Shown: positions 1 to 48,638 of the stretch, one piece after another
How positions within the stretch are numbered: the stretch's first letter is position 1
How the letters are laid out: the number at the start of each line of letters is the position of its first letter
Assembly: GCA_040755995.1 (NCBI GenBank)
Contig: JBFMAF010000010.1
Span: 32,001-96,000 of the forward strand
DNA: 64,000 bases
Origin: Acidobacteriota bacterium
GTDB taxonomy: Bacteria > Acidobacteriota > CAIWXX01
Direction of reading: 5' to 3'
Made by a program: the position numbers and the translations under genes
Notes under the pieces: generated by a model
The model's database searches: none
What the model saw: the letters and a program-made list of their open reading frames with translations, nothing else
Told to the model about the DNA's origin: nothing

Positions 1-591
1 CGTCTTGCCCGCCGGAGAGCTCGCGCGCACCTGCATGCCTGCGCGGAAGGCGGGTGGTGGAGCCACCGGGGCGCTTGCCCCGCTCGTGCTCACGCGGTGA
101 TCGTCCACCTGCATGCTCGACGCGTTGTAGACGCCTGTCTGTATCTCCCACATCGTCGCCGGCTCGTTGGAGACGGGCTGTGCTGCACGGGCCGGGGGCG
201 GTGCCGCCCGGGGCTCGGTCCGAGGGCTGGCCAGCTCCGCCGGTGCCTCTTCGATGATAGTCGGGGCCGCCGCCTCGATCACATCGGCTTCTTCCACCCA
301 CTGCGCGCGCATCTCGATCGTGCCGATCTGAATCACATCGCCGCCCGTGAGCGCGTGCGGGACCCGCGGCGGCGCCTGTTGCCCGTTCACCAGGATGCCG
401 TTGGTGCTCCCGAGGTCCTCCACAAACATCCGCGTTCCCTGGCGCAGGAACCGGCAGTGCCTGGATGAGACGAAATGAAACGGGAGCACCACGTCGTTCT
501 GCTCCAGCCGCCCGATCGCGGCAATTTCCTTGGCGATCGTCACCGTCTGACGCTCGCCACCCGGCTTGCGTATCTCGATCTGAATCGACAC
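1..591 (-). CDS. FHA domain protein with Pro/Ala-rich linker (3' end outside window); possibly SctD-like or a T3SS-associated FHA protein
   Basis: Not in ORF track; translated by hand from GTG at 591 (preceded by GAAGGGGG): MSIQIEIRKPGGERQTVTIAKEIAAIGRLEQNDVVLPFHFVSSRHCRF...EDLGSTNGILVNG...GGDVIQIG. FHA signature GR, SxxH, STNG. Open to position 1. Confidence 0.85.
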   Translation of the reverse strand, partial: MSIQIEIRKPGGERQTVTIAKEIAAIGRLEQNDVVLPFHFVSSRHCRFLRQGTRMFVEDLGSTNGILVNGQQAPPRVPHALTGGDVIQIGTIEMRAQWVEEADVIEAAAPTIIEEAPAELASPRTEPRAAPPPARAAQPVSNEPATMWEIQTGVYNASSMQVDDHRVSTSGASAPVAPPPAFRAGMQVRASSPAGKT

Positions 592-602
592 CGCCTATCC
601 CC

Positions 603-628
603 CTTCACATTTCATACTTCAAACTTCA
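603..628. repeat. Heptamer tandem array (TGAAGTW on minus strand) starting at the sctV stop codon
   Basis: cttcaca tttcata cttcaaa cttca. Confidence 0.7.
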
Positions 629-2797
629 GGCTCTACCGAATCCCGGCAGCGCGCCCGCCGTCGGCAGCAGAATTCGTCCGATTGGCTGGATGCGCAAGTC
701 AGCCGGGAGCTCCTGGAACGAGAGGACCACCACGTTCGGGAACTCGAAGCTGATGAGGCGCTTGGTGAAGTAACGCACCTCCATCTGCGTCAGAACGACC
801 GGCCGGATGGTGGTCATGTCGATCCTACCGAAGGCATTGCGAAAAGCCTGCAGGACCTGCTGGCTGACTTGCGGGTCGAGCGAGAGGTTGCTCCCCGCGG
901 CCGATTGGCGGATTCCGGCCTGGATGGGCTGCTCGACAGCGGGATCCAGCAGGTAGACCGGCAACGTCGGGGCTCCATTGCTGAACTTATACGCGATGTA
1001 GCGTTTCAGGTTCATCCGGACGTACTCGGTGAGATACACCGGATCGTTCTCGTACGGAGCCCAATCAGCGAGCGCCTCGAGGACGGCCTTCATGTTCTTG
1101 ATGGTGATCTCCTCGCGGAGCAGGCGTCGCAGTATGTCGGTGAGCCGCTGGATGCTCAGCAGCTTGGGGACCACGTTCTTCACGAGTGCCGCGTAGCCCT
1201 GCTGTTCCATCGAATCGAGGATGTTCTGAACCTCCTGGATTCCCAGCAGCTCATCGGCATGGCGCTTGATGACCTGCGACAGGTGGACTGCGATGTACTC
1301 GTCAGGAGGCAGAGTGCGACCTCCGACACCCTGCGCCTGCTGTGCCTGCGCATCCGGAATCCAGATGCCCATCTTGCCCGTGATAGGGTGCGCGCCTTGC
1401 GGGCCGTCTATCCCGGCCATACGAACTTCTGTCAGCCCCTCCCCGACAAACACGCTGTCGGGATACGCAGTCCCCAGCGTCACAGGTACTTCGTTGATGT
1501 AGACGGCGTACTGGTTGTCGGGGATGTGCGCGGCGTCGCCGCGGATGCGTACCCCGGGAAATACGACGCCCATGTCGTGGAACAACCAGAGTCGCATCTG
1601 TGGCAGCAGCTCGCTGACGAAACGCTCTCCGCGAGCTTCGACGTCGAGATACGGGGTGACATTCACGCTGGTCTCCAGTATGACCGGCACCGTGACCGGC
1701 AATTGCATCTCGGTCGCCTGCTGCTTCTGCGCATCCCCCTGCTTCTCCATCATCTTGTTCTTGATGGCCTCCTTGTCCTTCGTCTTCTTGGTCTTCTGGA
1801 GGCTCCATGATGTAACCCCTGCGGCCACGGCGAGGAGAAGGAACGGGATGGTGGGCATGCCCGGGATCAGCGCCATGCCTCCCATCATGCCGGCCGCGAT
1901 CCCGATTGCTGTCGGCTGCGAGAGCAGTTGGACTCCGATATCCTGGCCCAACGTCCGTGGCTCCTCGCTCCCGGCCACGCGCGTCGTCAACACCGCCGAT
2001 GTGACCGTGATGATGAGAGATGGGATCTGCGCCACCAGACCCTCGCCGATGGTCAAGAGCGTGTACTTCTTCAGCGCCACCGCAAACGGGTACTTCTTGA
2101 TCACGATCCCGATGATCAGACCGGCGATGATGTTGATGGCCGAGATGATGATCCCGGCGATCGCGTCGCCCTTCACGAACTTCATGGCGCCGTCCATGGC
2201 GCCGTGGAAAGTAGATTCCTTTTCCAACAGCTTCCGCTTCGCGCGCGCCTGGTCGGCGTCCAACAGCCCGGCGCGCAGGTCCGCGTCGATGCTCATCTGC
2301 TTGCCCGGCATCGCGTCCAACGTGAACCGTGCCGAGACCTCCGACACGCGCTCGGCGCCCTTCGCGATCACGATCAGCTGCAGGAGCGTGATGATCAGGA
2401 AGATCACGAAGCCGACGATCAGGTTCCCCTTGACGACGAAGCTCCCGAACGCGTGGATGACCTCGCCGGCATCTGCGTACAACAGGATCAAGCGCGTCGC
2501 CGACACCTCCAGAGAGAGCCGGAACAGCGTCGAGACCAGAAGGATCGTGGGAAACGACGCCAGGGCCAGCGCCTCGGGGATGTACAGCGAGATCATGAGA
2601 AGCCCGATGGCCATCGCCATGTTGGCCGAAAGGAAGATGTCCATCAGGAAGGTAGGTATCGGGATGATCATGATCCCGATAATCGCAATGACCAGAAGCG
2701 CGAGCAGGATGTCGCTGTACCGTCCCAAGACGACGTTCAGCTCCCCCCTCCGCAGGTTGGCCCAGAGCTCCATCAACTGTTGCTTGATACCTTCCAT
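626..2797 (-). CDS. sctV: T3SS export gate SctV (FlhA/LcrD family)
   Basis: FHIPEP motifs RVSEVSARFTLDAMPGKQMSIDADL and GAMDGAMKFVKGDAIAG; N-terminal TM helices; C-terminal VLSFQEL. Confidence 0.96.
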   Translation of the reverse strand: MEGIKQQLMELWANLRRGELNVVLGRYSDILLALLVIAIIGIMIIPIPTFLMDIFLSANMAMAIGLLMISLYIPEALALASFPTILLVSTLFRLSLEVSATRLILLYADAGEVIHAFGSFVVKGNLIVGFVIFLIITLLQLIVIAKGAERVSEVSARFTLDAMPGKQMSIDADLRAGLLDADQARAKRKLLEKESTFHGAMDGAMKFVKGDAIAGIIISAINIIAGLIIGIVIKKYPFAVALKKYTLLTIGEGLVAQIPSLIITVTSAVLTTRVAGSEEPRTLGQDIGVQLLSQPTAIGIAAGMMGGMALIPGMPTIPFLLLAVAAGVTSWSLQKTKKTKDKEAIKNKMMEKQGDAQKQQATEMQLPVTVPVILETSVNVTPYLDVEARGERFVSELLPQMRLWLFHDMGVVFPGVRIRGDAAHIPDNQYAVYINEVPVTLGTAYPDSVFVGEGLTEVRMAGIDGPQGAHPITGKMGIWIPDAQAQQAQGVGGRTLPPDEYIAVHLSQVIKRHADELLGIQEVQNILDSMEQQGYAALVKNVVPKLLSIQRLTDILRRLLREEITIKNMKAVLEALADWAPYENDPVYLTEYVRMNLKRYIAYKFSNGAPTLPVYLLDPAVEQPIQAGIRQSAAGSNLSLDPQVSQQVLQAFRNAFGRIDMTTIRPVVLTQMEVRYFTKRLISFEFPNVVVLSFQELPADLRIQPIGRILLPTAGALPGFGRA

Positions 2798-2807
2798 TTC
2801 AGTCTCC

Positions 2808-2945
2808 TAGACGGAAGACGGCGGACGGTAGACGGAAGAGGCACTGCCACCGTGTCTCTGCGTCTCCCCGTCTCCGCGATGTCCTCTCCCCGGTTCTCCG
2901 TTTCTCCGTTTCCCCGATTCTCCGGTTCTCCGATTCTCCGATTCG
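2808..2945. repeat. Composite heptamer (AGACGGN) and octamer (TTCTCCGN) tandem arrays between sctU and sctV
   Basis: agacgga agacggc ggacggt agacgga; ttctccgt ttctccgt ttccccga ttctccgg ttctccga ttctccga. Confidence 0.85.
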
Positions 2946-3012
2946 GCTCTTTGCATGAACGATGCTACCCTGTGACCGCTCACTCTCCTGGCCGCAACAG
3001 CCATGCTGATCA

Positions 3013-4086
3013 TCACACGCCTCCGGGCACTCGCTGCGCCTCTTGGCGGAGCCGATAGGCGAACAGCAGGATCTCGGCCACCGCCTCGTACATGTCGCGC
3101 GGGATGTAACGTCCCATCTCGACCGTGAAGAGCGAGTGCGCCAGCTGGATGTCGCGGATGATGGGCACGTCGTGTTTCTTGGCGAGCTGGACGATGGTGG
3201 CGGCAAGCGTCCCGCCGCCCTTGGCGGTGACTTTGGGAGCGCCCATGGTGGCGCGATCGTATCGGACGGCGACGGCGAGATGAGTAGGGTTGGTGACCAC
3301 CGCGTCAGCCTTCGGAACTTCCTGCTGGATGTTCTGGAAGATCATGGCCTGCCCCAGCGCCTTCCGCTGTGCCTTGATCATCGGGTCGCCTTCGCTCTCC
3401 TTGTATTCCTGCTTGACCTCGTCTTTGCTCATCATGAGCTGCTTCTTCCACTGGTGCTTTTGCCAAAAGTAGTCGAAGCCGGCTACCGCCAGGAACAGGC
3501 CGCCGACCTGGAAGGTGAACGATCGCGCGATCTGAAAGCCGATTCGGTAGAACGCTCCCATGTCAGTCCAGTGCAGCCGCACGATCGTCTCCATGGCGTT
3601 CGCCAGCGCCTTGTAGCCTAGGTATAGCACCAGCACGACTTTGATCAGGGTTTTCAGGAATTCGACGATGCCCTTCCCGGAAAAAATCCTCTTCACGCCT
3701 TCGATCGGGTTGAGCTTCTTCAGCGACGGTTTCATCGGCTCGAACGTCAGGTTGAACCCTGCCTGCGCGGCGGCCAGCGCCAGGCCGGTTACGGCAATTC
3801 CTCCGATGATCGGCACGAAGCAGACGACGATCGCCATGAAAGCCTCTTGCAGCGGCAGCACCCAGATTGTCGCCGCGCTGGCGCCGTCGATGCGCACACC
3901 GGCCTGAATGGCGGTGTAATACAGGTTCCCGAATCGATCTCCGATGCGCGGCGCCCAGATCATGATAAGGGCCATGCCGGCGAGGAAGGTGAAGACGGCG
4001 GGGACCTCCTTGCTGAAGGCGATCTGCCCCTTCTTCTTGGCATCCGCCAGTTTCTTCGGAGTCGGTTGTTCGGTCTTCTCAGCCAT
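3013..4086 (-). CDS. sctU: T3SS autoprotease/switch protein SctU (FlhB/YscU family)
   Basis: N-terminal EKTEQPTPKKL..KKGQ; MSKDEVKQEYKESEGDP; NPTH autocleavage motif. Confidence 0.96.
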   Translation of the reverse strand: MAEKTEQPTPKKLADAKKKGQIAFSKEVPAVFTFLAGMALIMIWAPRIGDRFGNLYYTAIQAGVRIDGASAATIWVLPLQEAFMAIVVCFVPIIGGIAVTGLALAAAQAGFNLTFEPMKPSLKKLNPIEGVKRIFSGKGIVEFLKTLIKVVLVLYLGYKALANAMETIVRLHWTDMGAFYRIGFQIARSFTFQVGGLFLAVAGFDYFWQKHQWKKQLMMSKDEVKQEYKESEGDPMIKAQRKALGQAMIFQNIQQEVPKADAVVTNPTHLAVAVRYDRATMGAPKVTAKGGGTLAATIVQLAKKHDVPIIRDIQLAHSLFTVEMGRYIPRDMYEAVAEILLFAYRLRQEAQRVPGGV

Positions 4087-4127
4087 GATGATTCGGTGCT
4101 ATGCGCTCGGTTCGTGGTGCTCGGTGC

Positions 4128-4979
4128 TCATGGCACGGCTTCGCGAAGCCATTCGTTCATCCATACGTGGAACTGGCGCCAGAGGTCGGGCGTGATCTGC
4201 AGCATGGCGTAGATCGAGAGCGCCACGACCAGCAGCCCGACTATGGGCTTGAGCGCCATGCCCATGAAGAAAACGTCCATTTGCGGGGCCATGCGGTTGG
4301 CCACGCCCAGGATGACATCGGCGAGGATCAGCACGAGAATGGCGGGCGCGACGACTTTCAACATGATGCCGAACATGGAGCCGGTCATACGGATGAATGC
4401 ATCGTTGAGCACGGCGGTCTTGGGAAACAGACCGATGGGCGGGAACAGCTGGTAGCTGTCGATCACGGCCGAGAGGAACCAGAGGTGGCCGCCCACCAGG
4501 ACGTACAGAACCACGAACAGCTGAAAGTAGAAGTCGCCCAGGAGAGAGGTCTGGATCTGGAGCTGCGGCACCAACAGATTGGCCATCGTGGTGCCCCGAA
4601 CGCTGTCGAGGAACTGGCCGCCCATGTTGGCTGCAAAGAAGACGAGGCTCGAGCCGAAGCCGATGAGGAGGCCGATCGTGATCTCGTGGAATGCCGCGAT
4701 CCACCAGCCGATCGCGTTGAGGCCTAGCGGCACCGCGAGCTGATGGCTCAACCACGGTGTCGTGAACCACGCCATGACCATGGCGAGGCCCATCTTCACA
4801 GGGCCAGGCACGAGCTTCCCGCCGAGGAACGGGCAGAACTGCACGATGGCGGTCCAACGGATCAGCGCGAGGAACAGCAACACGGCCGTGTCAAGCGCCC
4901 CATGCCGGACACCCCACAGCGGCGCAAATGTCCGAAAAGCGCCGTCCAATGAGCCTGAATCCGGCAGCCAACTTGACAT
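4128..4979 (-). CDS. sctT: T3SS export apparatus SctT (FliR family)
   Basis: Multi-TM protein; GGQFLDSVRG; GVANRMAPQMDVF; position after sctS. Confidence 0.92.
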   Translation of the reverse strand: MSSWLPDSGSLDGAFRTFAPLWGVRHGALDTAVLLFLALIRWTAIVQFCPFLGGKLVPGPVKMGLAMVMAWFTTPWLSHQLAVPLGLNAIGWWIAAFHEITIGLLIGFGSSLVFFAANMGGQFLDSVRGTTMANLLVPQLQIQTSLLGDFYFQLFVVLYVLVGGHLWFLSAVIDSYQLFPPIGLFPKTAVLNDAFIRMTGSMFGIMLKVVAPAILVLILADVILGVANRMAPQMDVFFMGMALKPIVGLLVVALSIYAMLQITPDLWRQFHVWMNEWLREAVP

Positions 4980-5002
4980 ACTAGCCTGCCCTGCAAGCCA
5001 AG

Positions 5003-5078
5003 GCGGGGAATCGGAGAGACGGAGAGTCGGTGAATCGGGGAATCGGAGAAACGGAGAAACGGAGAATCGGGGAACCGC
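5003..5078. repeat. Octamer array (CGGAGAAW), opposite orientation to the 2895 array
   Basis: gaatcggagagacggagagtcggtgaatcggggaatcggagaaacggagaaacggagaatcggggaacc. Confidence 0.85.
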
Positions 5079-5109
5079 GTCCGTTGATCATGAAGTAATG
5101 CATCACCGG

Positions 5110-5376
5110 CTATCTGATCCAATGCGGGAATTCGGAGAAGATGACATAGGCCAGGCGAGATACGTGGCCGGCCATCCAGTAGCCCATCAGGTACAGCACG
5201 CCGAACACTGCGATCATTTTCGCAGCCATGCCGAGAGTCTGTTCCTGGATCTGTGTCAGCGCCTGGAAGATGGACAGGAGGAGACCCACGACGAGGGCCG
5301 CGAGGACAGCTGGAGCCGAGACGAGCACGGTCAGGATCAGCGCCTCGCGCGATACGTTAATGAATATGTTCTCCAT
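5110..5376 (-). CDS. sctS: T3SS export apparatus SctS (FliQ family)
   Basis: GLLLSIFQALTQIQEQTL motif; 88 aa; ATG at 5376 after GAGG. Confidence 0.95.
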   Translation of the reverse strand: MENIFINVSREALILTVLVSAPAVLAALVVGLLLSIFQALTQIQEQTLGMAAKMIAVFGVLYLMGYWMAGHVSRLAYVIFSEFPHWIR

Positions 5377-5403
5377 AGTGCATCCTCGTTGCAAGTCGAG
5401 GGA

Positions 5404-6087
5404 TCACATGTAGCCCTGGATGAGCCCGCGTACGAGCAGGTCCCAACCATCTATCATGATGAACAGCAGGATCTTGAACGGCATCGAGACGGTTACGGGC
5501 GAGAGCATGTGCATGCCCATGGCCAGCAGGATGTTCGAGACAACCATGTCGATCACCAGGAACGGCAGGAAGATGAGGAATCCGATCATGAACGCCTCGG
5601 TCAGCTCGCTCACCGTGAACGCCGGTATCAGTACGAGCATGTCGTCGTCCTTCATCTCGGTCTTCCAGGATTCCGGGCCCATGCGAATCGCCATCTGGTA
5701 AAAGAGGCCTCGTTCCTTCGGGTGCGCGTGCTTGGACAGGAAAGCCCGCATCGGCTCGCGCGCCTTCTCCACCACGTCCAGTATCATTTTGGCCCCGCCC
5801 GGCGACACGATGTCCTGGCCCGATTGCTGCGTGAGCGTCGGCTGCAGCGTGTCGTAGACCTGCGAGCCGATCGGCGCCATCACGTAGATGGTCATGATCA
5901 CGGCGAGCCCCATGAGCACCGGCGTCGGCGGGACCTGCTGCGTACCCAGCGCGGTGCGGAGAATGGAGAGGACCACCGAGAACTTCACGAAAGACGTGGT
6001 CATCATCAGCAGGAATGGGGCCATGGAGAGCATGCTGACCATGATCAGCGTCGTTACGGGGTTGGCGGACCATGATCCGATGTTCAT
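5404..6087 (-). CDS. sctR: T3SS export apparatus SctR (FliP family, no cleavable signal)
   Basis: MTTSFVK..LRTALGTQQVPP; PAFTVSELTEAF; PFKILLFIMIDGW. Confidence 0.96.
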   Translation of the reverse strand: MNIGSWSANPVTTLIMVSMLSMAPFLLMMTTSFVKFSVVLSILRTALGTQQVPPTPVLMGLAVIMTIYVMAPIGSQVYDTLQPTLTQQSGQDIVSPGGAKMILDVVEKAREPMRAFLSKHAHPKERGLFYQMAIRMGPESWKTEMKDDDMLVLIPAFTVSELTEAFMIGFLIFLPFLVIDMVVSNILLAMGMHMLSPVTVSMPFKILLFIMIDGWDLLVRGLIQGYM

Positions 6088-6422
6088 GCCTTGTCTGCTC
6101 CTTGATTTGATGCCCGACCCACCTCCTCGAGCGTGTGTTCGAACGAAGCGGAGCCCGGATCAGCTCGGGTGTGGAGCACCTGCACTCGATCCGGTGAGGT
6201 GGCGATGAGGAGGTGCGTGCGGTCCCAACGTACAACGTATAGCCGGTGGTTGCGATCCAACGGCAGGAACTCGTCGACCTGCAGGGTGCGAGGGCGCGAG
6301 GCCGCGCGATAGCGCATGAGCCATGGCAGGCCGAATCGAAGGGTGATGAAGGCGATGACGATGACAACGAGCAACGCGGCGAATCCGCGCAGCAGCAACC
6401 AGGCTTCCTGCGATGCATCCAT
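6084..6422 (-). CDS. FliO-like single-TM protein
   Basis: 112 aa; N-terminal TM then beta-rich LQVDEFLPLDRNHRLYVVRW..HLLIATSPDRVQVL; ATGA overlap with sctR, the fliO-fliP position. Confidence 0.75.
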   Translation of the reverse strand: MDASQEAWLLLRGFAALLVVIVIAFITLRFGLPWLMRYRAASRPRTLQVDEFLPLDRNHRLYVVRWDRTHLLIATSPDRVQVLHTRADPGSASFEHTLEEVGRASNQGADKA

Positions 6423-6433
6423 GTCAGATCCCG

Positions 6434-6498
6434 GCGAGGCGCGGCCTCGCCTCGCGTAGAGAGCAGAGAGTGGAGAGTGGAGAGTGGAGAGTAGAGTG
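6434..6498. repeat. GCGAGG-CCTCGC hairpin followed by AGAGTGG heptamer array
   Basis: gcgaggcgcggcctcgc ... agagcag agagtgg agagtgg agagtgg agagtag. Confidence 0.85.
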
Positions 6499-6533
6499 TC
6501 GCAGCGCCGCAGCTTGAGATACTGTGCACCTTA

Positions 6534-6830
6534 TCATGTGGACGCGCTCTCCTTGAACTGCGTCAAGATCCGCAGGATCTCGACGCCGAGCTTCTCGTGC
6601 ACGAGGACCACTCGCCCTTCGGCCAACACCCGCCGCTGCAGTCCGGTCTCTGCAACCAGCTTCACCAGGTCGTCGGCGCCGCGCTGCAAGGTGAGCACCT
6701 GGCCGACCTGCCACTTCTTCAGGTCGCCGAGGGTGACGGGAACGCGGTCCAATTCGATGGCGATCTGCAGTTCGAGGTCCTGGACTGGAACGGACTCAAG
6801 TTCGCCGGTCGGAGCATCTTTCTCAGCCAT
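6534..6830 (-). CDS. Predicted internally initiated SctQ-C (FliN-like, 98 aa)
   Basis: In-frame ATG at 6830 with GGAGGTG 8 nt upstream, just before the last SPOA domain. Confidence 0.65.
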   Translation of the reverse strand: MAEKDAPTGELESVPVQDLELQIAIELDRVPVTLGDLKKWQVGQVLTLQRGADDLVKLVAETGLQRRVLAEGRVVLVHEKLGVEILRILTQFKESAST

Positions 6831-8078
6831 GACCCAGTCACCTCCCGGTGTATGTACCCACAGTTTCTCGAGCGACAGTTTAAGACTACCTTGCTCCCTG
6901 CGCAATCCGCCCGTGTGCCAGAATCGTGCGAGCCGGAGGTAGGCCGACCCGAGCACGCCGTCCTGTACGTCACCTGGGCGCCAGGCGGCGGGCAGCCAGA
7001 CGTCAGGAAGCAGAACGTCGCCGACTTCGATCCGAGCCCAGTCCGAGACCTTCAGCCGGATGAGGCCGGCCCACACCGAGGCAGGCCAGATGAGATCGTC
7101 GAGATCGAGGTCGGCCGCCGCCTGCGGCTCGATGACTGGACACAGGATCGTGGTGGCGAGCTCGGTGGCCTGGCGGCTCAGCCAGACACTTGCCAGGAGA
7201 TACGCCGCGTGTCGCAGCTCTTCCGGGGCTTCGCCGGGTGCGATCCACCCGGCGATCTGGACCGGCTGCTGCAGCTTGTCGCTCAACAAGTTGGCAATCT
7301 GGAGGAGCACGAACTGCGCGATGCCTTCTTCCATCGCACTCGTCTCCCACGGCTCGTCCGGCTTGATTTCCGTTATGTGCTGCCAACATGCGCGCATCCA
7401 CACGGACGGGACTCGCACCCACACCGTGTGAGCGCCGCATTGAACCCTCGCCCACCGATCGGACGGGTTCGCGAGCTCACGGAGGGGCGACTTGAAGCGA
7501 GCCGGCTGCAGGCCCGAGGCTCGCACCCGGATCGCCTCGGGCTCGGTCGACGCGTGGGTCTGCTCGATCAGCGTCAACGTGTAAGGCGGGATCTCGATCC
7601 GATCACCGCCGTGCAGCGGCACCGGCGTGAGGGGCTCCAGCTTCTGTCCGTTGCGCCTGGTGCCGTTGGTGCTCTTCAGGTCCATGAGGCAGGCGAGCCC
7701 TCGGTCCATCTGGATCTCAGCGTGCTCAGACGAGACCGTCGGGCCGGGCAGCTGCAAGTGGCATGATTCTCCGCGCCCGATCCGAAAGGGGAAGTACCGT
7801 ACATCCAGATCCCGTTCCCCACCCCGGCGGTCTTTCAGCCGGAGACGCAAGATCACGTCGCCGTGGGAAACGAACGGCCACCACGCTGCCATGGCCTCGG
7901 GCAGCGCTGCACTCACCCGCGCGGCCCAGGGGCGCAGGCTCCGGACCGTGGCATCCACCTTCACCTGCTGCCCAATCTCGGCCGGGTCCACCTCCGGAAG
8001 CCCAATGGCCCAGGACGACATCCCACCGTATGTGCCGGGCTGCACCGTGTCGGATCTCACGCATCGAGTCTCGTCCAT
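6534..8078 (-). CDS. sctQ: SctQ (FliM/FliN SPOA family) with an FHA domain in the N-terminal part
   Basis: C-terminal SPOA (DLELQIAIELDRVPVTLGDLKKWQVGQVL..AEGRVVLVHEKLGVEI); a second SPOA-like segment (RIEVGDVLL); FHA (RIGRGESC..VSSEHAEI..DLKSTNGT). Start chosen at ATG 8078 (alternative 8021); the track's 8240 start runs through repeats. Confidence 0.88.
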   Translation of the reverse strand: MDETRCVRSDTVQPGTYGGMSSWAIGLPEVDPAEIGQQVKVDATVRSLRPWAARVSAALPEAMAAWWPFVSHGDVILRLRLKDRRGGERDLDVRYFPFRIGRGESCHLQLPGPTVSSEHAEIQMDRGLACLMDLKSTNGTRRNGQKLEPLTPVPLHGGDRIEIPPYTLTLIEQTHASTEPEAIRVRASGLQPARFKSPLRELANPSDRWARVQCGAHTVWVRVPSVWMRACWQHITEIKPDEPWETSAMEEGIAQFVLLQIANLLSDKLQQPVQIAGWIAPGEAPEELRHAAYLLASVWLSRQATELATTILCPVIEPQAAADLDLDDLIWPASVWAGLIRLKVSDWARIEVGDVLLPDVWLPAAWRPGDVQDGVLGSAYLRLARFWHTGGLRREQGSLKLSLEKLWVHTPGGDWVMAEKDAPTGELESVPVQDLELQIAIELDRVPVTLGDLKKWQVGQVLTLQRGADDLVKLVAETGLQRRVLAEGRVVLVHEKLGVEILRILTQFKESAST

Positions 8079-8136
8079 CGGGTCACATCCTGTGCGGGGT
8101 GCGGCATCGGTCGATGTAGCACGCAAGGCCGCTTTC

Positions 8137-8313
8137 GCCGCGCCTCGCGCAGAGAGTGGAAAGTAGAGAGTAGAGAGTGGAAAGCGTGCCCCTGCGCGAT
8201 CGCGATCGGCGTGGCGCTGCATGAGCGAGGGCGCCCGCATGACCCACTGCTCCGAAAACTTGACTCAATCGCAACGTCTTCCCTCTCCCGTCTTCCGTCT
8301 CCCGTCTCCCGTC
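8137..8313. repeat. Composite intergenic element: GCCTCGCG + AGAGT heptamers + AAACTTGACTCAATCGCAAC box + CGTCTCC heptamers
   Basis: Same layout recurs at 37575-37683. Confidence 0.75.
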
Positions 8314-9249
8314 CTACTTCTGACTTATCTCCTCGATTATCTCTTCCTGTTTTCTCTTGCGTTCCTGTTCCTGCTGCTGCTCCGATCCGCGTTTCTGATC
8401 CAGCTGAGGCTGCCCCGATGACTGGCTCTGGGTCACGACACCCTGCGAGCCGCCTGCCGGGAATTGCGCGTCGCGAGGCGCCTGGGGTTGGATGACGACT
8501 TCGGACGGGCTCACTCGCAGCCGCTCGGCCTGCTGGGCATCCGGCGGCGGCTGCCACTTGAACTCGGATAGATCCGGCGCGCGCACCGTCAACTGCTGCA
8601 GATTCAGACCGCGGGCCTCCAGCCGGCTCGTGAGCTCGCTCATGTGGGTCTTGAGGAGGTCCTGCGCGTCGACAGTCTGCGTCTTGAAGTCGACCTTCAG
8701 CTGCCCGTCGGCGGCGCGATGCAGCTCGACGCTCATGTTCCCGAGCGCCCCCATGTTCAGCTCCATGTGAACCTCGGTCGATCCGCCTGCATTCATGCGG
8801 ACCTGCACCGCATCCACGATCTGGTTCGCTATTCGCTGGATCTGTGCGACGGCATCGGTGGTGCTCAGGCCGGCGGCCGCCTTGACCTCGATCTGTTGCA
8901 TCGCGGCCTGGAAGCTGAACGGGATCATCATGTCGCCCGGCACTGGGCGGCGGTGCAGGGCCTCCTGCTGCGAAGACTGCCCCGAGCCGCCTCGTCCTTC
9001 GCCCTCGCCCGACTGCTCTCCCTCGCGCCGCTCATGACGGCGTTCTACACCGTGCTCGGTCGCCCGGGCTGTTTCGGGCTTGTCTCCACTGCCTGTCGCC
9101 TTGGCCTCGCCCTTCCCCGTCCCTTCTCCGGCGTCCGCCTTCCTGTCCATCACCCGGTCGAACTCGGCCTCACCCCCTTTGTCCACCTCGGCGGCCGTCT
9201 CAGGTGGGGGTGTCGGCGCCATTGGTCCCGTGCTGTCCACCTTAGTCAT
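8314..9249 (-). CDS. sctP: SctP/FliK-like length-control protein
   Basis: Disordered E/G/K-rich N-terminus; FliK-C-like domain (EVHMELNMGALGNMSVEL..LKVDF..LLKTHMSELTSRLEARGL); follows sctO. Confidence 0.8.
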   Translation of the reverse strand: MTKVDSTGPMAPTPPPETAAEVDKGGEAEFDRVMDRKADAGEGTGKGEAKATGSGDKPETARATEHGVERRHERREGEQSGEGEGRGGSGQSSQQEALHRRPVPGDMMIPFSFQAAMQQIEVKAAAGLSTTDAVAQIQRIANQIVDAVQVRMNAGGSTEVHMELNMGALGNMSVELHRAADGQLKVDFKTQTVDAQDLLKTHMSELTSRLEARGLNLQQLTVRAPDLSEFKWQPPPDAQQAERLRVSPSEVVIQPQAPRDAQFPAGGSQGVVTQSQSSGQPQLDQKRGSEQQQEQERKRKQEEIIEEISQK

Positions 9250-9254
9250 GGACC

Positions 9255-9311
9255 TTCTCCGTTTCTCCGGTTCTCCGATTCCCCGGCTCTCCGTTTCTCC
9301 GATTCTCCCCC
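9255..9311. repeat. Octamer array TTCTCCGN
   Basis: ttctccgt ttctccgg ttctccga ttccccgg ctctccgt ttctccga ttctcccc. Confidence 0.85.
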
Positions 9312-9312
9312 G

Positions 9313-9828
9313 CTACTCGCCTTCCTCTTCGGCGGTCTCAGCCCTGTCCCTCACGAATCGCGCGAGGGCAATCTCCTCTCCAAGCTTCTGCTCCTTCTGC
9401 TGCATCTCCAACTTCCACTCGTTGAACCACTTCTCCCGGTGCTTCTCGATCGCCTTGAGAGCCTTGTCCGCCTCGATCAGCTCGCTCTTCCTCTCTTCCA
9501 CTTTCTGCTCCGCCTGCTGCACCACCTGCTTCTGAGCCTCGATCGCAGCGTCGTTCTCCTTGATGGCGTAATCGATGTGTTGGATGCCGTTCTTCCGCTG
9601 CTCTACCGCCGGAATCGACAGCATCCCCTTCTCGTCAGGATCGTACAGGTGCGCAACTCGATCGGCTCGCGTCTCCAGCAGCGTCTGTCGTTTCGTCTCG
9701 AGTTCCTTGAGCTTCTGCTGTTCCCGCTGCACCTCTTGCATCGCCTGCGCGAGCGCCTTCTTCGCGCTCTCCTTGGCGCGACCGCGCTGGTCCAGCACCG
9801 TTTGAAGCGGATATTTCGGAGGTTTCAT
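9313..9828 (-). CDS. sctO: SctO/FliJ stalk protein
   Basis: KYPLQTVL N-terminus; coiled coil; KAIEKHREKW..EQKLGEE; directly after the ATPase. Confidence 0.85.
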   Translation of the reverse strand: MKPPKYPLQTVLDQRGRAKESAKKALAQAMQEVQREQQKLKELETKRQTLLETRADRVAHLYDPDEKGMLSIPAVEQRKNGIQHIDYAIKENDAAIEAQKQVVQQAEQKVEERKSELIEADKALKAIEKHREKWFNEWKLEMQQKEQKLGEEIALARFVRDRAETAEEEGE

Positions 9829-9831
9829 ATA

Positions 9832-9862
9832 AAGTATGAAGTGTGAAGTATGAAGTATGAAG
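9832..9862. repeat. Heptamer array AAGTATG
   Basis: aagtatg aagtgtg aagtatg aagtatg aag. Confidence 0.8.
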
Positions 9863-9914
9863 CAGGTAGTCGGTAGCCCGGAATCAAGTTGATCTCTGAG
9901 ATTCGCGGGAGCAT

Positions 9915-11261
9915 CTACTTCAGGCCTCCGACCACCTTCATCCGCTCGATCGTCTCCTGGAAGTCGTCCTTCTCGTTAGTGCTCTGCTTCAGAAACCCCT
10001 CGACATCACGAATTCGATCGATGGCCTCGTCGACGCGCGCGTCGGAGCCGCGCTTGTAAGCCCCCAGCAAGACGAGGTCGCGGTTCTTCTCGTAGTTGGC
10101 GATGAGCTCGCGCGTCTTCTGCGCGGCCTTGAGATGATCCTGGGTTGCGACCGCGGTCATCACGCGGCTGGCGCTGCGCAGCACGTCGATCGCGGGGAAA
10201 TGGCCGCGCGCCGAGAGCTCGCGCGACAGAATCAGGTGGCCGTCCAGAATCGAGCGGACCTCGTCGGCCACCGGCTCAGTCATGTCGTCGCCCTCGACGA
10301 GCACGGTGTAGAAGGCGGTGATCGAGCCCTTCTGCGAGTTGCCGGCGCGCTCCAGAAGCTTCGGCAGCGTCGCGAAGACCGACGGCGGGAACCCCGCGCG
10401 GGCCGGAGGCTCTCCGATGGCGAGCCCCACCTCGCGTTGCGACCGCGCGAAGCGCGTCACCGAGTCCATCATCAGGATCACCTTCTTCCCCTGATCTCGG
10501 AAGTACTCCGCGACGGCCGTGGCCACGTAGGCGGATTTCAAGCGAACAAGCGATGGCTGGTCGGACGTGGCGACGACGGTCACCGATCTGGCCATGCCCT
10601 CCTCACCCAGGGATTCCTCGATGAAATCCATTACCTCGCGACCGCGCTCGCCGATCAGGGCGATCACGTTCACGTCTGCCACGGTGTTGCGTGCCAGCAT
10701 GCCGAGCAGCGTCGATTTGCCGCCGCCGGCGGCTGCGAAGACACCCATGCGCTGCCCTTCGCCGATCGTCAAGAGAGAATCGATCACGCGGACTCCGACA
10801 GGGAACGGGCTCAGGACGCGTTTCCGCTTCATCGGATCCGGCGGCGGTGCGTAGATCGGGTATTCGACGGTGTTGGTGACGTCTATCGGACCCTTGCCGT
10901 CGAACGGCTCGCCCAATCCGTTCAGCACGCGCCCCAGCAGCGACGCGCCGACTCGCACCGTCATCACGTTGCCCGTCGGCCTGACCTCGCTGTCGGGGCC
11001 GATTCCGGTGAGCTCGCCCAGGGCCATGAGATAGACAAGATCGTTCTTGAAGCCGACGACCTCGGCGCGAACGGGTTGGTCGCGCAACGGGGTCTCGATG
11101 TAGCACAGCTCGCCCATGCGCACTCCCGGTACGCGGGCCTTGATGACAAGGCCCGTCACCTCGACAACCCGGCCCCGGACCTCGATCGGAGTGACCTCGT
11201 CGATCAGTTGGAGGTATGGGGTAAGGTCGAGGTCAACCACGCCCTGCTGTGTTTCAATCAT
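9915..11261 (-). CDS. sctN: T3SS ATPase SctN
   Basis: Walker [10 protein letters not shown] (YscN-type); [10 protein letters not shown]; Walker [19 protein letters not shown] 11261 after GGAGG. Confidence 0.97.
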
Positions 11262-11524
11262 GAGCACGCCTCCAACCCATTATCACCGATCGCCGCCCGG
11301 ATGTTGCCTGTGCGGGGCCCGAGAAACGGTGACGTGGCTCTGGGATGGTGAACGCAGGCAGAGTCATAACCGCCGGACCCTCCAGGCCCAGGTTCACGTC
11401 TACGCCCGGCAGACACTCGTGCGTCCTCCGGCCGTCTGCACCACTCCCTCATACCAGATTCTTTTCTGCCCTTCTTCAGTTGTCAATGAAACCCGCCAGG
11501 ATGGCGCCCCCGATGCGGATTGGA

Positions 11525-12175
11525 TCAAGGGGTAGACGATTCGGCCTCCCCAAGCAGGTGTCGCTCCATCACCCGGATCTGCGTCTCGATTGTCGTGTCG
11601 ACCATCCCGAATTCCGTCTCGATGCGGCAGCCGCCTCGCTGTAGCGTGTCGTCGGGGACGATGTCCAGGCTGCCGAGGAACGGATTGCGCTCCAGCCACT
11701 TCTGGCGGCGCGCTTCCAGGATCTCTTTGTCCTGCGGGTGGACGCGCAGAATGATCCGCATCTGCTGCTGCCCGCGGAGTGATCGGATCGCCTCGTCGAC
11801 CATCCCTACCAGCAGCTCAGGCGAAGCCTCCAGCTTCTGGCGCACGATCTTCTCAGCGACGCGTATAGCCAATCGGATGACCTGTGGTTTGGCCTGTTCC
11901 ACCAATCCCTTCATCCCCTCCTGCACGCGTTGGATCTGCGCGAGCCATTCGGCCATGCCCTTCTCGTAGCCGGCCTGGCGGCCTTCCTGCAGGGTCTTGT
12001 CGCGGACCTCCTGGGCGGACAGCAGGATCTGATCTGCCTGGGCCTTGGCGGCCTCGATGATTCGTCTCGCCCGATCGGCCGCCTCGATGACCTCGCGGTC
12101 GATGATCTTGCCGGGTGCTGGAAGAGGTGATGCGGATTCGGGTTCGTCCGTTGGTCTCTTGATGATCTTGGTCAT
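11525..12175 (-). CDS. sctL: SctL/FliH stator protein
   Basis: KIIK N-terminus; AxxxGxxxG repeat; LRVHPQD; DDTLQRGGCRIETEFGMVD. Confidence 0.92.
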   Translation of the reverse strand: MTKIIKRPTDEPESASPLPAPGKIIDREVIEAADRARRIIEAAKAQADQILLSAQEVRDKTLQEGRQAGYEKGMAEWLAQIQRVQEGMKGLVEQAKPQVIRLAIRVAEKIVRQKLEASPELLVGMVDEAIRSLRGQQQMRIILRVHPQDKEILEARRQKWLERNPFLGSLDIVPDDTLQRGGCRIETEFGMVDTTIETQIRVMERHLLGEAESSTP

Positions 12176-13152
12176 TTGGATTGCTCGTCATCCGCGAGCG
12201 CCACACGGATCTGTCCCGTCTGGTTCAGCTCCTGTAGCGTCTCACGCAATCTCTGTATCCACTCGTCGATAGAGGGCTGCACCGGCGTCGAGAGCCATTC
12301 GGGGTGGCCGGCCAGTGCATCGAGCGCAAACTGTCCTACGCTGCGCGGCAGGCGGTAGGCAAGGCGCCTCAGGTGGAGTCCCTGCCCACGCATCAGACCG
12401 CATCGCAGCCAATCGGCCACGGCCATTCGAGTAACGCGTTTCGCGAGGCTGGGATAGGATTTCTCCAGCTCCTTGTAAACGACCGGCCAGAACGGATCGT
12501 CCAACCACTTCTTGCTCTGGATGATTGCAGTGGCGATCGTCTGGAGCTCCGCGGGCAGTTGCCACATGAGCTGCTGCGCCTCGGATCGAGGGAGTTTGCG
12601 GATGCAGCTCACCAGGCCCGCCGTGCCATGGAGGCGGAGTACCGCGGCGAGCTCGGCATCGCTCATCTCGCAAAGGCTGCCCGGCAAGTCTGCGTCGCTG
12701 TGAGTCTTCTCCGCCGGCGGGAGGTCGGGGTAGCCGAGCCGCCGTTTGACATAGTTCGACAGCCAGATAGTCCACCATCTCGGCATCACGCCCTCGATGA
12801 TCTTCGTCTTCCCGGCGGGCGGCAGGCGTCTCTTCAACCTCTCGCGCGAATCGCCCGGCAAGCATTCCAGTGCCCACAAGCGCCACTGCGCAGGCCACTC
12901 CTGCATCAGATGGCCGATCCACGTGGGGTGGATGAGCGACCACGGAATGGTCATGGCCTTCATCGTGAGAACACGCAGCAGCTGTTTCTGAGCCTCTGGG
13001 GGCAACCCGCATAGGTGCTCGGCCATCCTTCGGACCTGCTCGGGATTCGCCTCGTCGCCGGGCGAGGCGCCGGGCAGGCGCGGCAGCACGGCCCCCTGGC
13101 TGGATTTGAGTGCCGCATACGTGAACGACAGGTGGGTCAGCGGGCTGTACAT
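12172..13152 (-). CDS. Putative SctK (FliG-position) sorting-platform protein
   Basis: Between sctJ and sctL with ATGA overlap; helical, W/L/P-rich with IHPTWI; call rests mainly on synteny. Confidence 0.55.
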   Translation of the reverse strand: MYSPLTHLSFTYAALKSSQGAVLPRLPGASPGDEANPEQVRRMAEHLCGLPPEAQKQLLRVLTMKAMTIPWSLIHPTWIGHLMQEWPAQWRLWALECLPGDSRERLKRRLPPAGKTKIIEGVMPRWWTIWLSNYVKRRLGYPDLPPAEKTHSDADLPGSLCEMSDAELAAVLRLHGTAGLVSCIRKLPRSEAQQLMWQLPAELQTIATAIIQSKKWLDDPFWPVVYKELEKSYPSLAKRVTRMAVADWLRCGLMRGQGLHLRRLAYRLPRSVGQFALDALAGHPEWLSTPVQPSIDEWIQRLRETLQELNQTGQIRVALADDEQSK

Positions 13153-13166
13153 CGGGCCCCTAGCAA

Positions 13167-13225
13167 GCCGCGGCCTCGCGCGGAGAAGAGTAGAGAGTGG
13201 GGAGTGGAGAGTGGAGAGTGGACAG
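13167..13225. repeat. GCCTCGCG motif plus AGAGTGG heptamer array
   Basis: gccgcggcctcgcgcgg agaagagtag agagtgg ggagtgg agagtgg agagtgg. Confidence 0.85.
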
Positions 13226-13352
13226 CTACCGGTACGCACCCCGGTTTGGTATCGTTATGACGCACCGCGGCAGAATCGTGACTCACTTGAAACATCGCTG
13301 ACGCGAGTCCGCGCCCGCTGCTCACCTTCGCCTCAGTCATCGCGGCCGGCTG

Positions 13353-14174
13353 CTACGCGCGGGGCTGCCGTTGCACGGACTGGAGCTGCCGCTGAGCCAT
13401 GGCGTGTTCGTAGCGGATCTGGCTCAGGACGCGCCCCTGCCAGAAGAGCAGCCCGCCCATCAGCAGCAGCAGGAGGACGAAGATGGCCGTGATTATCTTC
13501 AGCGTGATCATGGATGTGCGGGCCACCATCAGGGGGCCGAATGCCACGAAGTCCTGGAAGCCTTGGGAAGGGGCCATCTGGATGGGCTTCATCACGACGC
13601 TGACGCTTTCCGGCTTCAGGCCGGAGACGCCGTTGCCCACGATCTTCTGCACCTCGTCCTGCCGGATCGGAGTCTGCCCGGCGGAGTCGGGCCGGTACTC
13701 GATCATCACCGACGCCTTCGCCTCGCCCCTGATCTGCCCGGTGATGTCTTCTTCAGGAAGTACGACGTGGACGCGGGCTGCGATTACGCCGGTGACCGCC
13801 TCGAGCGTGTGGGAGAGCTCTCCCTGCAGGGCTTCGAGGTACAGGGCCTTCTCTTCGATCGGCGCGACGACCAGCTTGCTCTTGCCGAAAACGTCCTGGA
13901 ATCGCCGCCCTGGTGATGTCGGCAGCCGGTACTCCTGCAGAACGCCCCACACCTTGACTGTGTCTCGTCGCGGCACGACGACACGCCACGTGTTGTTCTC
14001 GGCGTTCTCGATCTCCTTGGTCGCGACGACACCCTGCTCCTGCAGCACCGCGATCACGCGATTGGCCTCCGTCTCGGAGACGTCGTGCAGGACGGCCGAA
14101 TTGCATCCGGCAAGGAACAGAAGCGAAACGCACAGCAGCGCCAGCAGCTGGGATTTGATTGCCTTCTCTTGCAT
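13353..14174 (-). CDS. sctJ: T3SS inner-membrane ring lipoprotein SctJ (YscJ/PrgK family)
   Basis: Lipobox LAGC; SETEANRVIAVL; GVIAARVHVVLP; KASVMI; C-terminal TM; 273 aa, far shorter than FliF. Confidence 0.93.
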   Translation of the reverse strand: MQEKAIKSQLLALLCVSLLFLAGCNSAVLHDVSETEANRVIAVLQEQGVVATKEIENAENNTWRVVVPRRDTVKVWGVLQEYRLPTSPGRRFQDVFGKSKLVVAPIEEKALYLEALQGELSHTLEAVTGVIAARVHVVLPEEDITGQIRGEAKASVMIEYRPDSAGQTPIRQDEVQKIVGNGVSGLKPESVSVVMKPIQMAPSQGFQDFVAFGPLMVARTSMITLKIITAIFVLLLLLMGGLLFWQGRVLSQIRYEHAMAQRQLQSVQRQPRA

Positions 14175-14214
14175 GTCCTCCCCCACGAAGCACTATTCTA
14201 CTTGCTAAGCAAAG

Positions 14215-14243
14215 ATCATAGACCAACCATCGCGCAAAGTCCA
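14215..14243 (-). promoter_or_regulatory. Candidate sigma70 promoter of the T3SS operon
   Basis: TGGACT-17 bp-TATGAT on the minus strand, ~40 bp above the sctJ start. Confidence 0.4.
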
Positions 14244-14290
14244 TTTGGAGAGATACTGAGTATTGTGTGCTCAGTGCTCAGTGCGCCCAG

Positions 14291-14347
14291 AACCGTGAAC
14301 CGAGAACCGGGAACCGTGAACCGCGAGCCGGGAACCGTGAACCGAGA
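14291..14347. repeat. Heptamer array AACCGNG (8 copies)
   Basis: aaccgtg aaccgag aaccggg aaccgtg aaccgcg agccggg aaccgtg aaccgag. Confidence 0.9.
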
Positions 14348-14439
14348 TCTGGAATCCAATCGGTTGAAGCAAATCCAATGTTTTGGATCACGGGGCCGGT
14401 CATGTTGAGCTATGTTGCTGAAAACGTAGCCCAAAGCAT

Positions 14440-23747: not shown

Positions 23748-23862
23748 TGCGTACATGATAGCCATCTGCCTGGATGATGCAAGAAGCAGGATGAGCGGGG
23801 AGTGTGGTATCCTCTGGTTCAGGCCCTTTCAGTACGCCACCGTATGGAAAGGGCGTCAAGGA

Positions 23863-37715: not shown

Positions 37716-38885
37716 CTAGGTCGCTTTCCGGCGCAGGAACGTCGGGACTTCGAGCACCTCTTCCGGGGTTGGAGCGTAGTGGTTCTGAGGTTGGTAAGGG
37801 GTGCGCGCCGGCGGTGTAACGATGCGCTGCGGTGTGACCGGGAGAGCACTCAGCGGCACCGGCGTCGGGTGGTGAGCCCCGACGACCATGCCCCCGTGAC
37901 GTGTCGTGGCGGAATCGAAGCCGGTCGCGATCACGGTGATCTTCACCTCACCGTCCATCGAATCATCATGCACATCGCCGAAGATGATCAGCGCGTTCTC
38001 GTTGGCCGCTCTCGTCACGATCGATGCAGCGTCATTCACCTCGTGCAGCGTGAGGTCCGCGCCGCCCGTAACGTTGATTATCACTCCCATGGCCCCCTCG
38101 ATGCTGGCGTCTTCGAGCAGCGGCGAGGAGATTGCCTGCTGCACTGCGTCAACGGCGCGGTTCTCGCCGCGGGCAACACCGGTGCCCATCAACGCCAGGC
38201 CAGCGTTCTGCACCACCGTCTTGACATCGGCGAAATCGACCTTGATCACTCCGGGCTTGGTGATAATGTCGGAGATGCCCTGTACGGCCTGCCTCAGTAC
38301 GTCGTCGGCTATCCGGAACGCCTCCTGGAGGCCTGTAGATTTCTCGACCGTCTGCAGCAGCCGCTCGTTGGAAATCGTGATCACGCTGTCGACGCACTGC
38401 CGCAGCTCGGCCAGCCCGCTCTCGGCAATCGCCATGCGCTTCCGATGCTCGAAGGCGAAAGGCTTGGTTACGATGGCCACGGTCAGAGCGCCGAGCTCCT
38501 GCGCGAGCTGCGCGATTACCGGCGCGGCGCCCGTGCCGGTGCCGCCGCCCAGGCCCGCCGTTACGAAGACCATGTCCGCCCCCTCGAGCGCTTCCAGGAT
38601 CTTGTCAGTGTCTTCCAGCGCCGCCTGCTTGCCGACTTCCGGGTTGGCTCCCGCGCCCAGCCCCTTCGTGAGCTTCTCGCCGAGCTGCAGCCGCACCGGC
38701 GCCGCATTGCTCGTCAGCGACTGGCAATCCGTGTTCGCCGCGATGAACTCGACTCCGGCAATCCCCGCGCGAACCATCCGGTTCACCGCATTGCCTCCTC
38801 CACCTCCGACGCCGATCACCTTGATCCGTGCGCCCGGCTTCAACTCCTCTTCGAACGTGAACATCGGTTTGCGCGCTTCAGCCAT
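37716..38885 (-). CDS. ftsZ: Cell division protein FtsZ
   Basis: [22 protein letters not shown]-terminal EVPTFLR. Confidence 0.98.
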
Positions 38886-38992
38886 GGTGCTCATTCCTTT
38901 CCGCACAACGCGAGCGTCTCCATTGCGGTCTCATTCCGTCGTACGCCGTACCCACCCAACCCGGCGCCCGTATCCGAGCGCCTCGGATCGCC

Positions 38993-39030
38993 GTGTCTCC
39001 GTTTCTCCGTTTCCCCGATTCTCCGTTTCG
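38993..39030. repeat. Octamer array TTCTCCGN between ftsA and ftsZ
   Basis: 30 bp (38996-39025) identical to 2895-2924. Confidence 0.8.
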
Positions 39031-39090
39031 CATGCGGTCAGCCACTCTCGTTCCCCTGAGTTCGGATGAGGAGTTGAACATCGGCGTCGC

Positions 39091-40323: not shown

Positions 40324-40337
40324 CACCTCCTGGTCAT

Positions 40338-43709: not shown

Positions 43710-43715
43710 GGCGCC

Positions 43716-47244: not shown

Positions 47245-47250
47245 GGCTCG

Positions 47251-48627: not shown

Positions 48628-48638
48628 GGCGGCTCGTT

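Follow-up and report, generated by a model that had tools for sequence, protein, structure and literature searches.

In PMC3459982, non-flagellar type III secretion systems (T3SSs) were found only in Chlamydiae, Proteobacteria and Verrucomicrobia. The closest described systems are those of the myxobacteria, among them the needle-less T3SS* of Myxococcus xanthus (mxan_2434-2464) (PMC3459982, PMC12075869, PMC10849154). They have been described as being without secretin, SctF, tip and translocon (PMC3459982). Abby and Rocha proposed that the first injectisome had SctF and no secretin, and that the myxobacteria lost SctF (PMC3459982). FliO has already been reported for both non-flagellar systems of M. 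xanthus (PMC12248157), and orphan export 'CORE' genes of Chloracidobacterium thermophilum were read as a nanotube platform (PMC6456723). Here we analyze a non-flagellar T3SS in a 64,000-nucleotide stretch of an Acidobacteriota genome (the window; genome G000, contig C10, positions 32001-96000). The genome measures 7.74 Mb in 56 contigs and is 99.84% complete and 3% contaminated.

We assign a probability of roughly 0.6 to the reading that the locus encodes a functional, secretin-less, filament-building non-flagellar T3SS, which belongs to a basal, Myxococcota-like grade and is split over two loci. The gene set, its synteny and conservation, the co-occurrence of its parts and its position in the trees are direct observations. 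The first-pass annotation of the window had named the locus the best candidate for an undescribed system. A basal T3SS, undescribed in the literature searched, is indeed present, but only half of it had been read, the rest being located on contig C25.

The export core on contig C10

Thirteen genes from sctJ to sctV, all intact and free of internal stops, run on the minus strand from window position 14174 down to 626 and are followed by two FHA genes. They are given below in operon order; positions refer to the window unless a contig is named, and bits and cut-offs to the respective models.

13353-14174, minus: sctJ, inner-ring lipoprotein (TIGR02544 153 bits, FliF 43; lipobox LAGC)
12172-13152, minus: FliG-like protein of 326 aa in the SctK position (profile/PDB, Atlas and Pfam matches)
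11525-12175, minus: sctL, stator (TIGR02499 above cut-off)
9915-11267, minus: sctN, ATPase (TIGR02546 630 bits, above cut-off)
9313-9828, minus: sctO, FliJ-like stalk (YscO-like, E 1.5e-24; FliJ, E 1.5e-9; TIGR02473 above cut-off)
8314-9249, minus: sctP, FliK-like length ruler and substrate switch (Flg_hook (FliK), E 3.7e-12; HpaP, E 4.5e-5)
6534-8078, minus: sctQ with N-terminal FHA domain (FHA, E 7.9e-19; FliMN_C, E 1.6e-11; TIGR02551 below cut-off)
6084-6422, minus: fliO (PF04347 above cut-off)
5404-6087, minus: sctR (TIGR01102 above cut-off; FliP below cut-off)
5110-5376, minus: sctS (TIGR01403 above cut-off)
4128-4979, minus: sctT (TIGR01400 (FliR) 143 bits, TIGR01401 137 bits; both below cut-off)
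3013-4086, minus: sctU (TIGR00328 (FlhB) 347 bits, TIGR01404 338 bits; NPTH at residue 266)
626-2797, minus: sctV, export gate (TIGR01399 776 bits, above cut-off; FlhA 650, below cut-off; trees)
1-591, minus: FHA protein of 232 aa with C-terminal membrane anchor, ending left of the window
C10:29842-31896, outside the window: FHA-TM-IPT-IPT-barrel gene (TM, transmembrane segment), 684 aa, last gene of the operon

The annotated order from sctJ to sctV holds, and three entries are now more precise: the gene marked 'K?' is FliG-like, SctQ carries an N-terminal FHA domain, and a second FHA gene extends the operon beyond the window. SctRSTUV together with SctN, SctJ, SctQ and SctL form the core set of a non-flagellar T3SS, and the export genes are single-copy in the genome. 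SctL, SctN, SctR, SctS and SctV pass the cut-offs of the non-flagellar NCBIfam models and SctO that of FliJ, while for SctT and SctU the flagellar models score slightly higher than the non-flagellar ones. The scores and the lipobox agree with the earlier call of SctJ rather than FliF. The [10 protein letters not shown]-loop of SctN, annotated as YscN-type, and the NPTH motif of SctU are both present. The probable start of sctJ is the ATG at 14174, following GGAGG, with a GTG at 14186 as alternative; the gene to its right, TonB-type receptor-like by inspection, is divergent, as had been stated. The operon order is kept in six relatives, whose SctV proteins are 71-81% identical, and both FHA genes 3' of sctV are also found in G006, G025, G029, G095 and G131. 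Several gaps between the genes, such as those at window 2800-3010 and 8080-8310, are filled by short tandem repeat tracts of 7-9 bases.

Judged by its sequence, the 326-aa protein encoded between sctJ and sctL is FliG-like: with a 10-sequence profile, FliG takes all six top places among the PDB matches (E 0.005-0.055), the Atlas has matching FliG_M/C clusters, and members of its family give weak FliG_C, FliG_M and MgtE_N matches in Pfam. The flagellum-like gene order had been taken as a sign of an early form. It is weak evidence of antiquity, because the runs J-K-L and N-O-P-Q-R-S-T-U are also those of the Yersinia ysc order. The FliG-like gene, fliO, the FliJ- and FliK-like genes and the sigma-28 paralog described below would be the better markers of such a form. 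Regarding the claimed absence of flg, mot and fliC genes, neither flagellar rod nor flagellin genes were found in the host genome, and motor (mot) genes lay outside the search. The Tad marker RcpC was likewise not found in the host; among five relatives it was found in two and not in three.

A second locus on contig C25

The genes that precede sctJ in relatives are located elsewhere in the host genome. The second locus and the elements at the split are the following.

C25:14116-18808, minus: second locus, matching the genes upstream of sctJ in the relative G029
14281-14358, minus: 7-base repeat array marking the place of the missing sctI; on C25, a similar array comes after sctI
14215-14243, minus: sigma-70-like promoter of the sctJ operon (TGGACT-17-TATGAT); hexamers and spacing are the same in G010 and G029

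The order on C25 is a 114-aa open reading frame (ORF), the sigma-28 paralog, a 303-aa gene, a TPR chaperone gene, an E-like ORF, an 84-aa F-like gene, a G-like TPR gene and sctI. The sigma factor is FliA/WhiG-like (E 1e-32, below cut-off). The 303-aa protein, a Gly/Met-rich long paralog of F sharing the C-terminal helix of the 84-aa protein, may from its sequence be a tip or outer filament protein; adjoining it is the TPR gene, which is LcrH/SycD-like (E 1.7e-11). The E-like ORF of 91 aa owes its label to position only, and the G-like TPR protein of 132 aa weakly matches the HrpB1, SctY and CdsG models, below cut-off. SctI, the inner-rod protein, reaches 24.5 bits with TIGR02497 (cut-off 23.45).

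The E-F-G-I block precedes sctJ in five of the six nearest relatives, immediately in G010, G025, G095 and G131 and with a single additional gene in G029; the contig of G006 stops short of sctJ. Arrays of this 7-base repeat occur only 14 times among 3838 intergenic spaces, and two of them, in the same orientation, lie at the two ends of the split. An assembly artefact as cause is unlikely because these two arrays share only 13 identical bases, and the split is likely to be a real rearrangement at the repeat. Since the sigma-70-like site upstream of sctJ, the only one of its kind in the host genome, is conserved in G010 and G029, the split operon keeps its promoter.

Identity of the 84-aa protein

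Its place between E-like and G-like chaperone genes and near a separate, recognizable sctI, together with a series of weak matches, makes the 84-aa protein a candidate needle-type filament subunit. It is modelled as two helices, with a predicted local distance difference test (pLDDT) score above 90 for the C-terminal one, and the profile of its family (F family) collects 1887 cluster representatives with the same helix. Among 109 scanned members, nine match the HrpA pilin model (E 4.7e-5 to 0.05, all below cut-off) and four weakly match flagellar rod/hook models; one F-family member matches the SctI Pfam model. The top PDB match of a 60-sequence F profile is 7y6c_F (E 0.15), a 43-aa chain of a T3SS needle/co-chaperone entry, which we take to be the needle peptide. 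Two proteins of one Achromobacter T3SS locus were also weakly matched by the F-family profile, and one of the two fits the SctF model at E 2e-5. The Achromobacter T3SS-locus protein similar to F (probability 72%) has no NCBIfam name.

The F family occurs in 28 of 401 Acidobacteriota genomes, our comparison set for the phylum. A non-flagellar SctV is present in 23 of the 401 (in full length in 22, plus G143, placed by the six-gene tree); 22 of these 23 have the F family, compared to six of the 378 others, kin among the genomes not being independent. All five Myxococcota/delta-type genomes checked, a set without M. xanthus, contain it as well. The F gene adjoins G-like, sigma, sctI or sctJ genes in three of the five, and no T3SS neighbor was seen in the stretch examined in the other two. 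A long F gene of myxobacterial type is also present in G261 (C1:1504280-1504504; L180/L205), for which no FlhA/SctV match is listed and no T3SS neighbor was found within 20 kb.

The annotation 'no needle in view' was accurate for the window and its left flank and does not extend to the genome. The designation needle-less is not supported, because a candidate filament subunit, its chaperones and SctI are encoded on C25.

Phylogenetic position

SctV trees were calculated for 137 sequences (FastTree), 54 taxa (LG+G4) and 40 taxa (LG+C20, after removal of 14 near-redundant rows). A six-gene tree covers 42 taxa and 1902 columns, with 13 sparse taxa left out, and is in agreement with the SctV trees. 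Branch supports are Shimodaira-Hasegawa-like approximate likelihood ratio test (SH-aLRT) values. All non-flagellar systems group together (SH-aLRT 100 in three trees), separated by a long branch from all flagellar sequences. Within it, Chlamydiae plus Proteobacteria and allies make up a crown (SH-aLRT 99-100), outside of which the Acidobacteriota system lies. Together with its relatives it forms a clade of its own; the trees do not resolve how this clade branches relative to the Archangium loci and to other Acidobacteriota clades. The system had been called deep-branching. It is non-flagellar and lies outside the described crown families, but it is not the deepest branch: in the SctV trees the myxobacterial-type group comes first (SH-aLRT 90-94). 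The labels 'long' and 'short' of myxobacterial loci were inferred from gene content. The system nests neither within flagellar clades nor within a described family with secretin and needle just to the left.

The relatives G010 and G029 contain this system (SctV 80% identical) and in addition a separate FlhA (37-38%), which groups with flagella, and flagellin. The T3SS is therefore not the decayed flagellum of these two genomes.

Secretin, SctD, translocon and gatekeeper

The host genome encodes seven secretins. Six were scanned, one of which is a PilQ, and five fit best as GspD, below cut-off. With the SctC model these six reach 61-151 bits (cut-off 238); the seventh, at a contig end, lay outside the scan, and its neighbors resemble those of the GspD-like copies. 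All six scanned secretins lie beside pilus or lipoprotein genes, a type IV pilus is present in the genome, and none of five relatives has a secretin above the SctC cut-off. The first-pass statement that no secretin is in view also holds, for the SctC type, in the six scanned secretins and the five relatives. Six GspD-like secretins with TPR-like N-termini, on C29, C24, C52, C16, C51 and C22 (L004-L009), represent an expansion within the genome; most have a similar gene for an Ig-like lipoprotein before them.

With the SctD model TIGR02500, four unlinked genes are matched, each in its N-terminal (FHA) part only. In topology the 684-aa FHA-TM protein resembles SctD, and we rejected it as such: its periplasmic part is modelled (pLDDT 87) as a pair of IPT domains together with an alpha/beta domain and an avidin-like barrel of eight strands, the middle domain being barely tested. 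It has 14 homologs and is clade-specific. For an HrpJ/YopN gatekeeper and an SseC-type translocon, no match was obtained genome-wide with the HrpJ and SseC models, the only ones used for these rapidly diverging families.

Sigma-28-like motif and candidate substrates

A sigma-28-like motif, CAAC-N16/17-CGATAA, lies upstream of the 303-aa gene in the host and in G029. It occurs near 11 of 31 F-family ORFs and in 43 of 3000 random windows. A promoter matrix was derived from 18 matches, picked for lying before T3SS genes out of the 35 present in other genomes. Among 6139 genes it ranks the 303-aa gene 1st, sctN 3rd and C44:40320-41012 5th; these three also shaped the pattern.

11279-11307, minus: sigma-28-like promoter candidate before sctN (rank 3 of 6139; first spotted by eye and not fully independent)

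The C44 gene (C44:40320-41012, minus) encodes an unlinked 230-aa paralog of the 303-aa protein and is divergent from an FHA/sigma-54 activator gene. Two LysM genes without evident signal peptide (C20:162633 and C8:156369) rank high independently, as does a radical SAM operon (C16:87847). Further genes near the top seem unrelated, e.g., a Fur-like regulator at rank 2.

By eye, five LysM proteins are without evident signal peptide (C20:162633-165062, C21:41174-43266, C8:156369, C26:103832 and C50:11718), and we regard the LysM proteins as candidate T3SS substrates, as leads only. In the C20 and C21 copies a papain-like domain is present, and the 145-aa genes that come next are related to each other; the pairs resemble effector-immunity or effector-chaperone pairs. 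The C-terminal domain of the C20 protein has invariant Gln, Cys and His residues and a weak papain-type match, and the candidate peptidase weakly resembles the AvrRpt2-type papain fold; a PDB search with the peptidase profile gave no match. The papain-like domain was found in five of 400 other genomes, four of them with this T3SS.

At the radical SAM locus (C16:86731-89999; L214), genes for a methyltransferase and a radical SAM/SPASM enzyme are accompanied by one for a 113-aa peptide that contains three xYG repeats, by a helical ORF of 90 aa and by a G-like TPR gene. The sigma-28-like motif lies before the radical SAM gene, and the peptide may be modified and linked to the T3SS; its xYG repeats are like those of spliceotide precursors.

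Host genome and neighboring genes

The assignment of the host to Acidobacteriota, as first annotated, is supported by named sequence relatives. Those of FtsA (61-66% identity) are Acidobacteriota of several classes, with one labelled Patescibacteria, and those of SctV (51-80%) are named Acidobacteria, Acidobacteriota or Thermoanaerobaculia; some carry the database label 'SctV [Acidobacteriota]' already. The nearest named SctV proteins outside the phylum are from Myxococcota/Deltaproteobacteria (48-50%).

The left flank was read for sctC, sctD, sctF and sctI, as the first-pass annotation had proposed. No secretin, needle gene or SctD lies there next to the window; the flank consists of unrelated genes and then a helicase/methylase block. 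In this block (C10:11146-23220), genes for a methylase, an ATP-binding regulator and two large helicases stand side by side; it is defence-island-like by inspection only. At window 22038-23765 (minus), 8 kb from sctJ, one protein combines a lytic transglycosylase (SLT) domain with two FHA domains and could open peptidoglycan for the T3SS. A complete division and cell-wall (dcw) cluster, mraZ to ftsZ, lies at window 37716-54347 (minus) and is ordinary.

Discussion

From these genes, a working order for the machine can be proposed. FliO would help SctRST to assemble, and SctRSTUV would sit within the SctJ ring, which the FliG-like protein would join to the SctQ ring with its FHA domain and to the SctL-N-O ATPase. 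The E- and G-like chaperones would hold SctI and the 84-aa F-like subunit, which would be exported first and polymerize to a rod and a thin filament, with the length set by the FliK-like SctP. The filament operon would be transcribed by its own sigma-28 paralog, as FliA does for flagellin. Without SctC and SctD, the filament would either stop in the periplasm or cross the outer membrane through an unlinked secretin or another route. After the SctU switch, proteins lacking a signal peptide would be exported; as the candidates bear LysM, bacterial cell walls are the suggested target, which is the weakest step. Gate assembly, early SctI/F export, length control by SctP and the SctU switch follow established T3SS biology, and sigma-28 control of the filament operon and LysM export are drawn more loosely. 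Given a secretin-less, filament-building system, we put an antibacterial role at about even odds.

Several observations weigh against this reading. The 84-aa protein matches no SctF model of Pfam or NCBIfam, and neither it alone nor a 13-sequence profile matched any PDB chain. Fold searches returned generic helices, with no match in Foldseek and a best Z of 6.4 in VIA, to unrelated coiled coils. No outer-membrane route is shown, because no SctC, SctD ring domain, HrpJ/YopN gatekeeper or SseC translocon was found in the genome. The sigma-28-like motif was first seen by eye on this genome's own genes and precedes only two of the five signal-peptide-less LysM genes. The peptidase has only a weak Peptidase_C70 match, and neither the motif nor LysM was seen with any of its seven copies in other genomes, some of them at truncated loci.

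Part of this evidence would suit a needle-less export platform like the current Myxococcus T3SS*. The 84-aa family would then be an exported helical substrate or a further inner-rod protein, and export would finish in the periplasm or pass its cargo on to another pilus. The missing SctF match and inconclusive folds are what such a platform would predict, as are the SctI match of one F member and the weak rod matches of a few, no SctC was found, and a type IV pilus and GspD-like secretins are present. We nevertheless consider it unlikely: the 84-aa gene lies between chaperone genes and near a separate sctI, a FliK-like ruler is retained, and the Tad partner of Myxococcus is absent, by the RcpC search, here and in three of five relatives. 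Still less probable is a complete injectisome against eukaryotes such as protists or fungi, with a borrowed unlinked secretin, a divergent translocon and the 303-aa paralog as tip. Seven secretins, the LcrH/SycD-like gene next to that paralog and the AvrRpt2-type resemblance of the peptidase speak for it. The six scanned secretins, however, fit best as PilQ or GspD in pilus or lipoprotein surroundings, no SctD ring is there to dock a secretin, neither SseC nor HrpJ was matched, and LysM points to cell-wall glycans, though chitin is among these.

Decay, either of the lineage's own flagellum or of an injectisome, would account for the split locus and for flagellin and rod genes that are missing here and kept in two family members. 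It is already largely refuted and we regard it as very improbable, given that G010 and G029 hold this system next to a separate flagellar FlhA, that all genes are intact and that the promoter before sctJ is conserved.

If the reading of a filament-building, secretin-less T3SS is carried further, the basal secretin-less T3SSs of Acidobacteriota and Myxococcota would not be needle-less. They would share an overlooked SctF/HrpA-type filament family, their own sigma-28 and a base with FliG and FliO, and represent a living flagellum-to-injectisome stage that delivers cell-wall-directed proteins to bacteria, here without a Tad pilus. We offer this as a tentative proposal, which in its full extent is more doubtful than not. 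The gene set described here, with filament candidate, chaperones, inner rod and no secretin, is that predicted for the first injectisome in PMC3459982. The F family at myxobacterial T3SS loci bears on whether the predation T3SS* is truly without a needle, an open question in PMC12075869. Non-flagellar T3SSs are extended to about 6% (23/401) of the sampled Acidobacteriota genomes, and candidate substrates are offered.

Comparison with known systems

In the literature searched, parts of which were available only as excerpts, we found no description of this system and no needle candidate in myxobacterial loci; the supplements of PMC12248157, Thiery et al. 2022 and Hu et al. 2017 may list such loci. 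Incomplete T3SS sets of Acidobacteria were noticed before with the CORE of C. thermophilum, as a mention only, and the available text does not describe needle-like, chaperone and sigma genes or the clade (PMC6456723).

With the flagellar T3SS, the system shares FliG-, FliJ-, FliK- and FliA-like genes, FliO and the order fliF-G-H-I-J-K-N-O-P-Q-R-flhB-flhA; it differs in having SctJ instead of FliF and no rod or flagellin genes, and is separated from it with an SH-aLRT of 100. SctJ, L, N, O, P, Q, R, S, T, U, V and I are common to the canonical injectisomes (Ysc, Chlamydia Cds, Hrp), and the order E-F-G-I-J-K-L is like that of the ysc operon. Unlike them, the system has no SctC, SctD, SctW or translocon that we could find, keeps a K of FliG length, FliO and the sigma-28 paralog, and lies outside the crown (SH-aLRT 99-100).

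The myxobacterial non-flagellar T3SSs are closest. They too have no secretin or translocon, are basal to Chlamydiae plus Proteobacteria and the secretin-bearing systems, and possess SctI and FliO (PMC3459982, PMC12248157). The Archangium loci in addition hold F-family, G-like, sigma and sctI genes. In contrast, the present system is found in another phylum and forms its own clade, no RcpC marker of a Tad/Kil apparatus was found in its host, and an SctD ring is reported for the myxobacterial long locus with none found here. Its F protein has 84 aa, compared to roughly 150-240 aa in the five genomes of Myxococcota/delta type that were checked, and the FHA-TM-IPT-IPT-barrel gene is specific to its clade. 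The Acidobacteriota T3SS is a Myxococcus-type variant, which departs from the canonical injectisome in SctC and from T3SS* in its host, in the absence of the Tad marker and in its needle-chaperone block.

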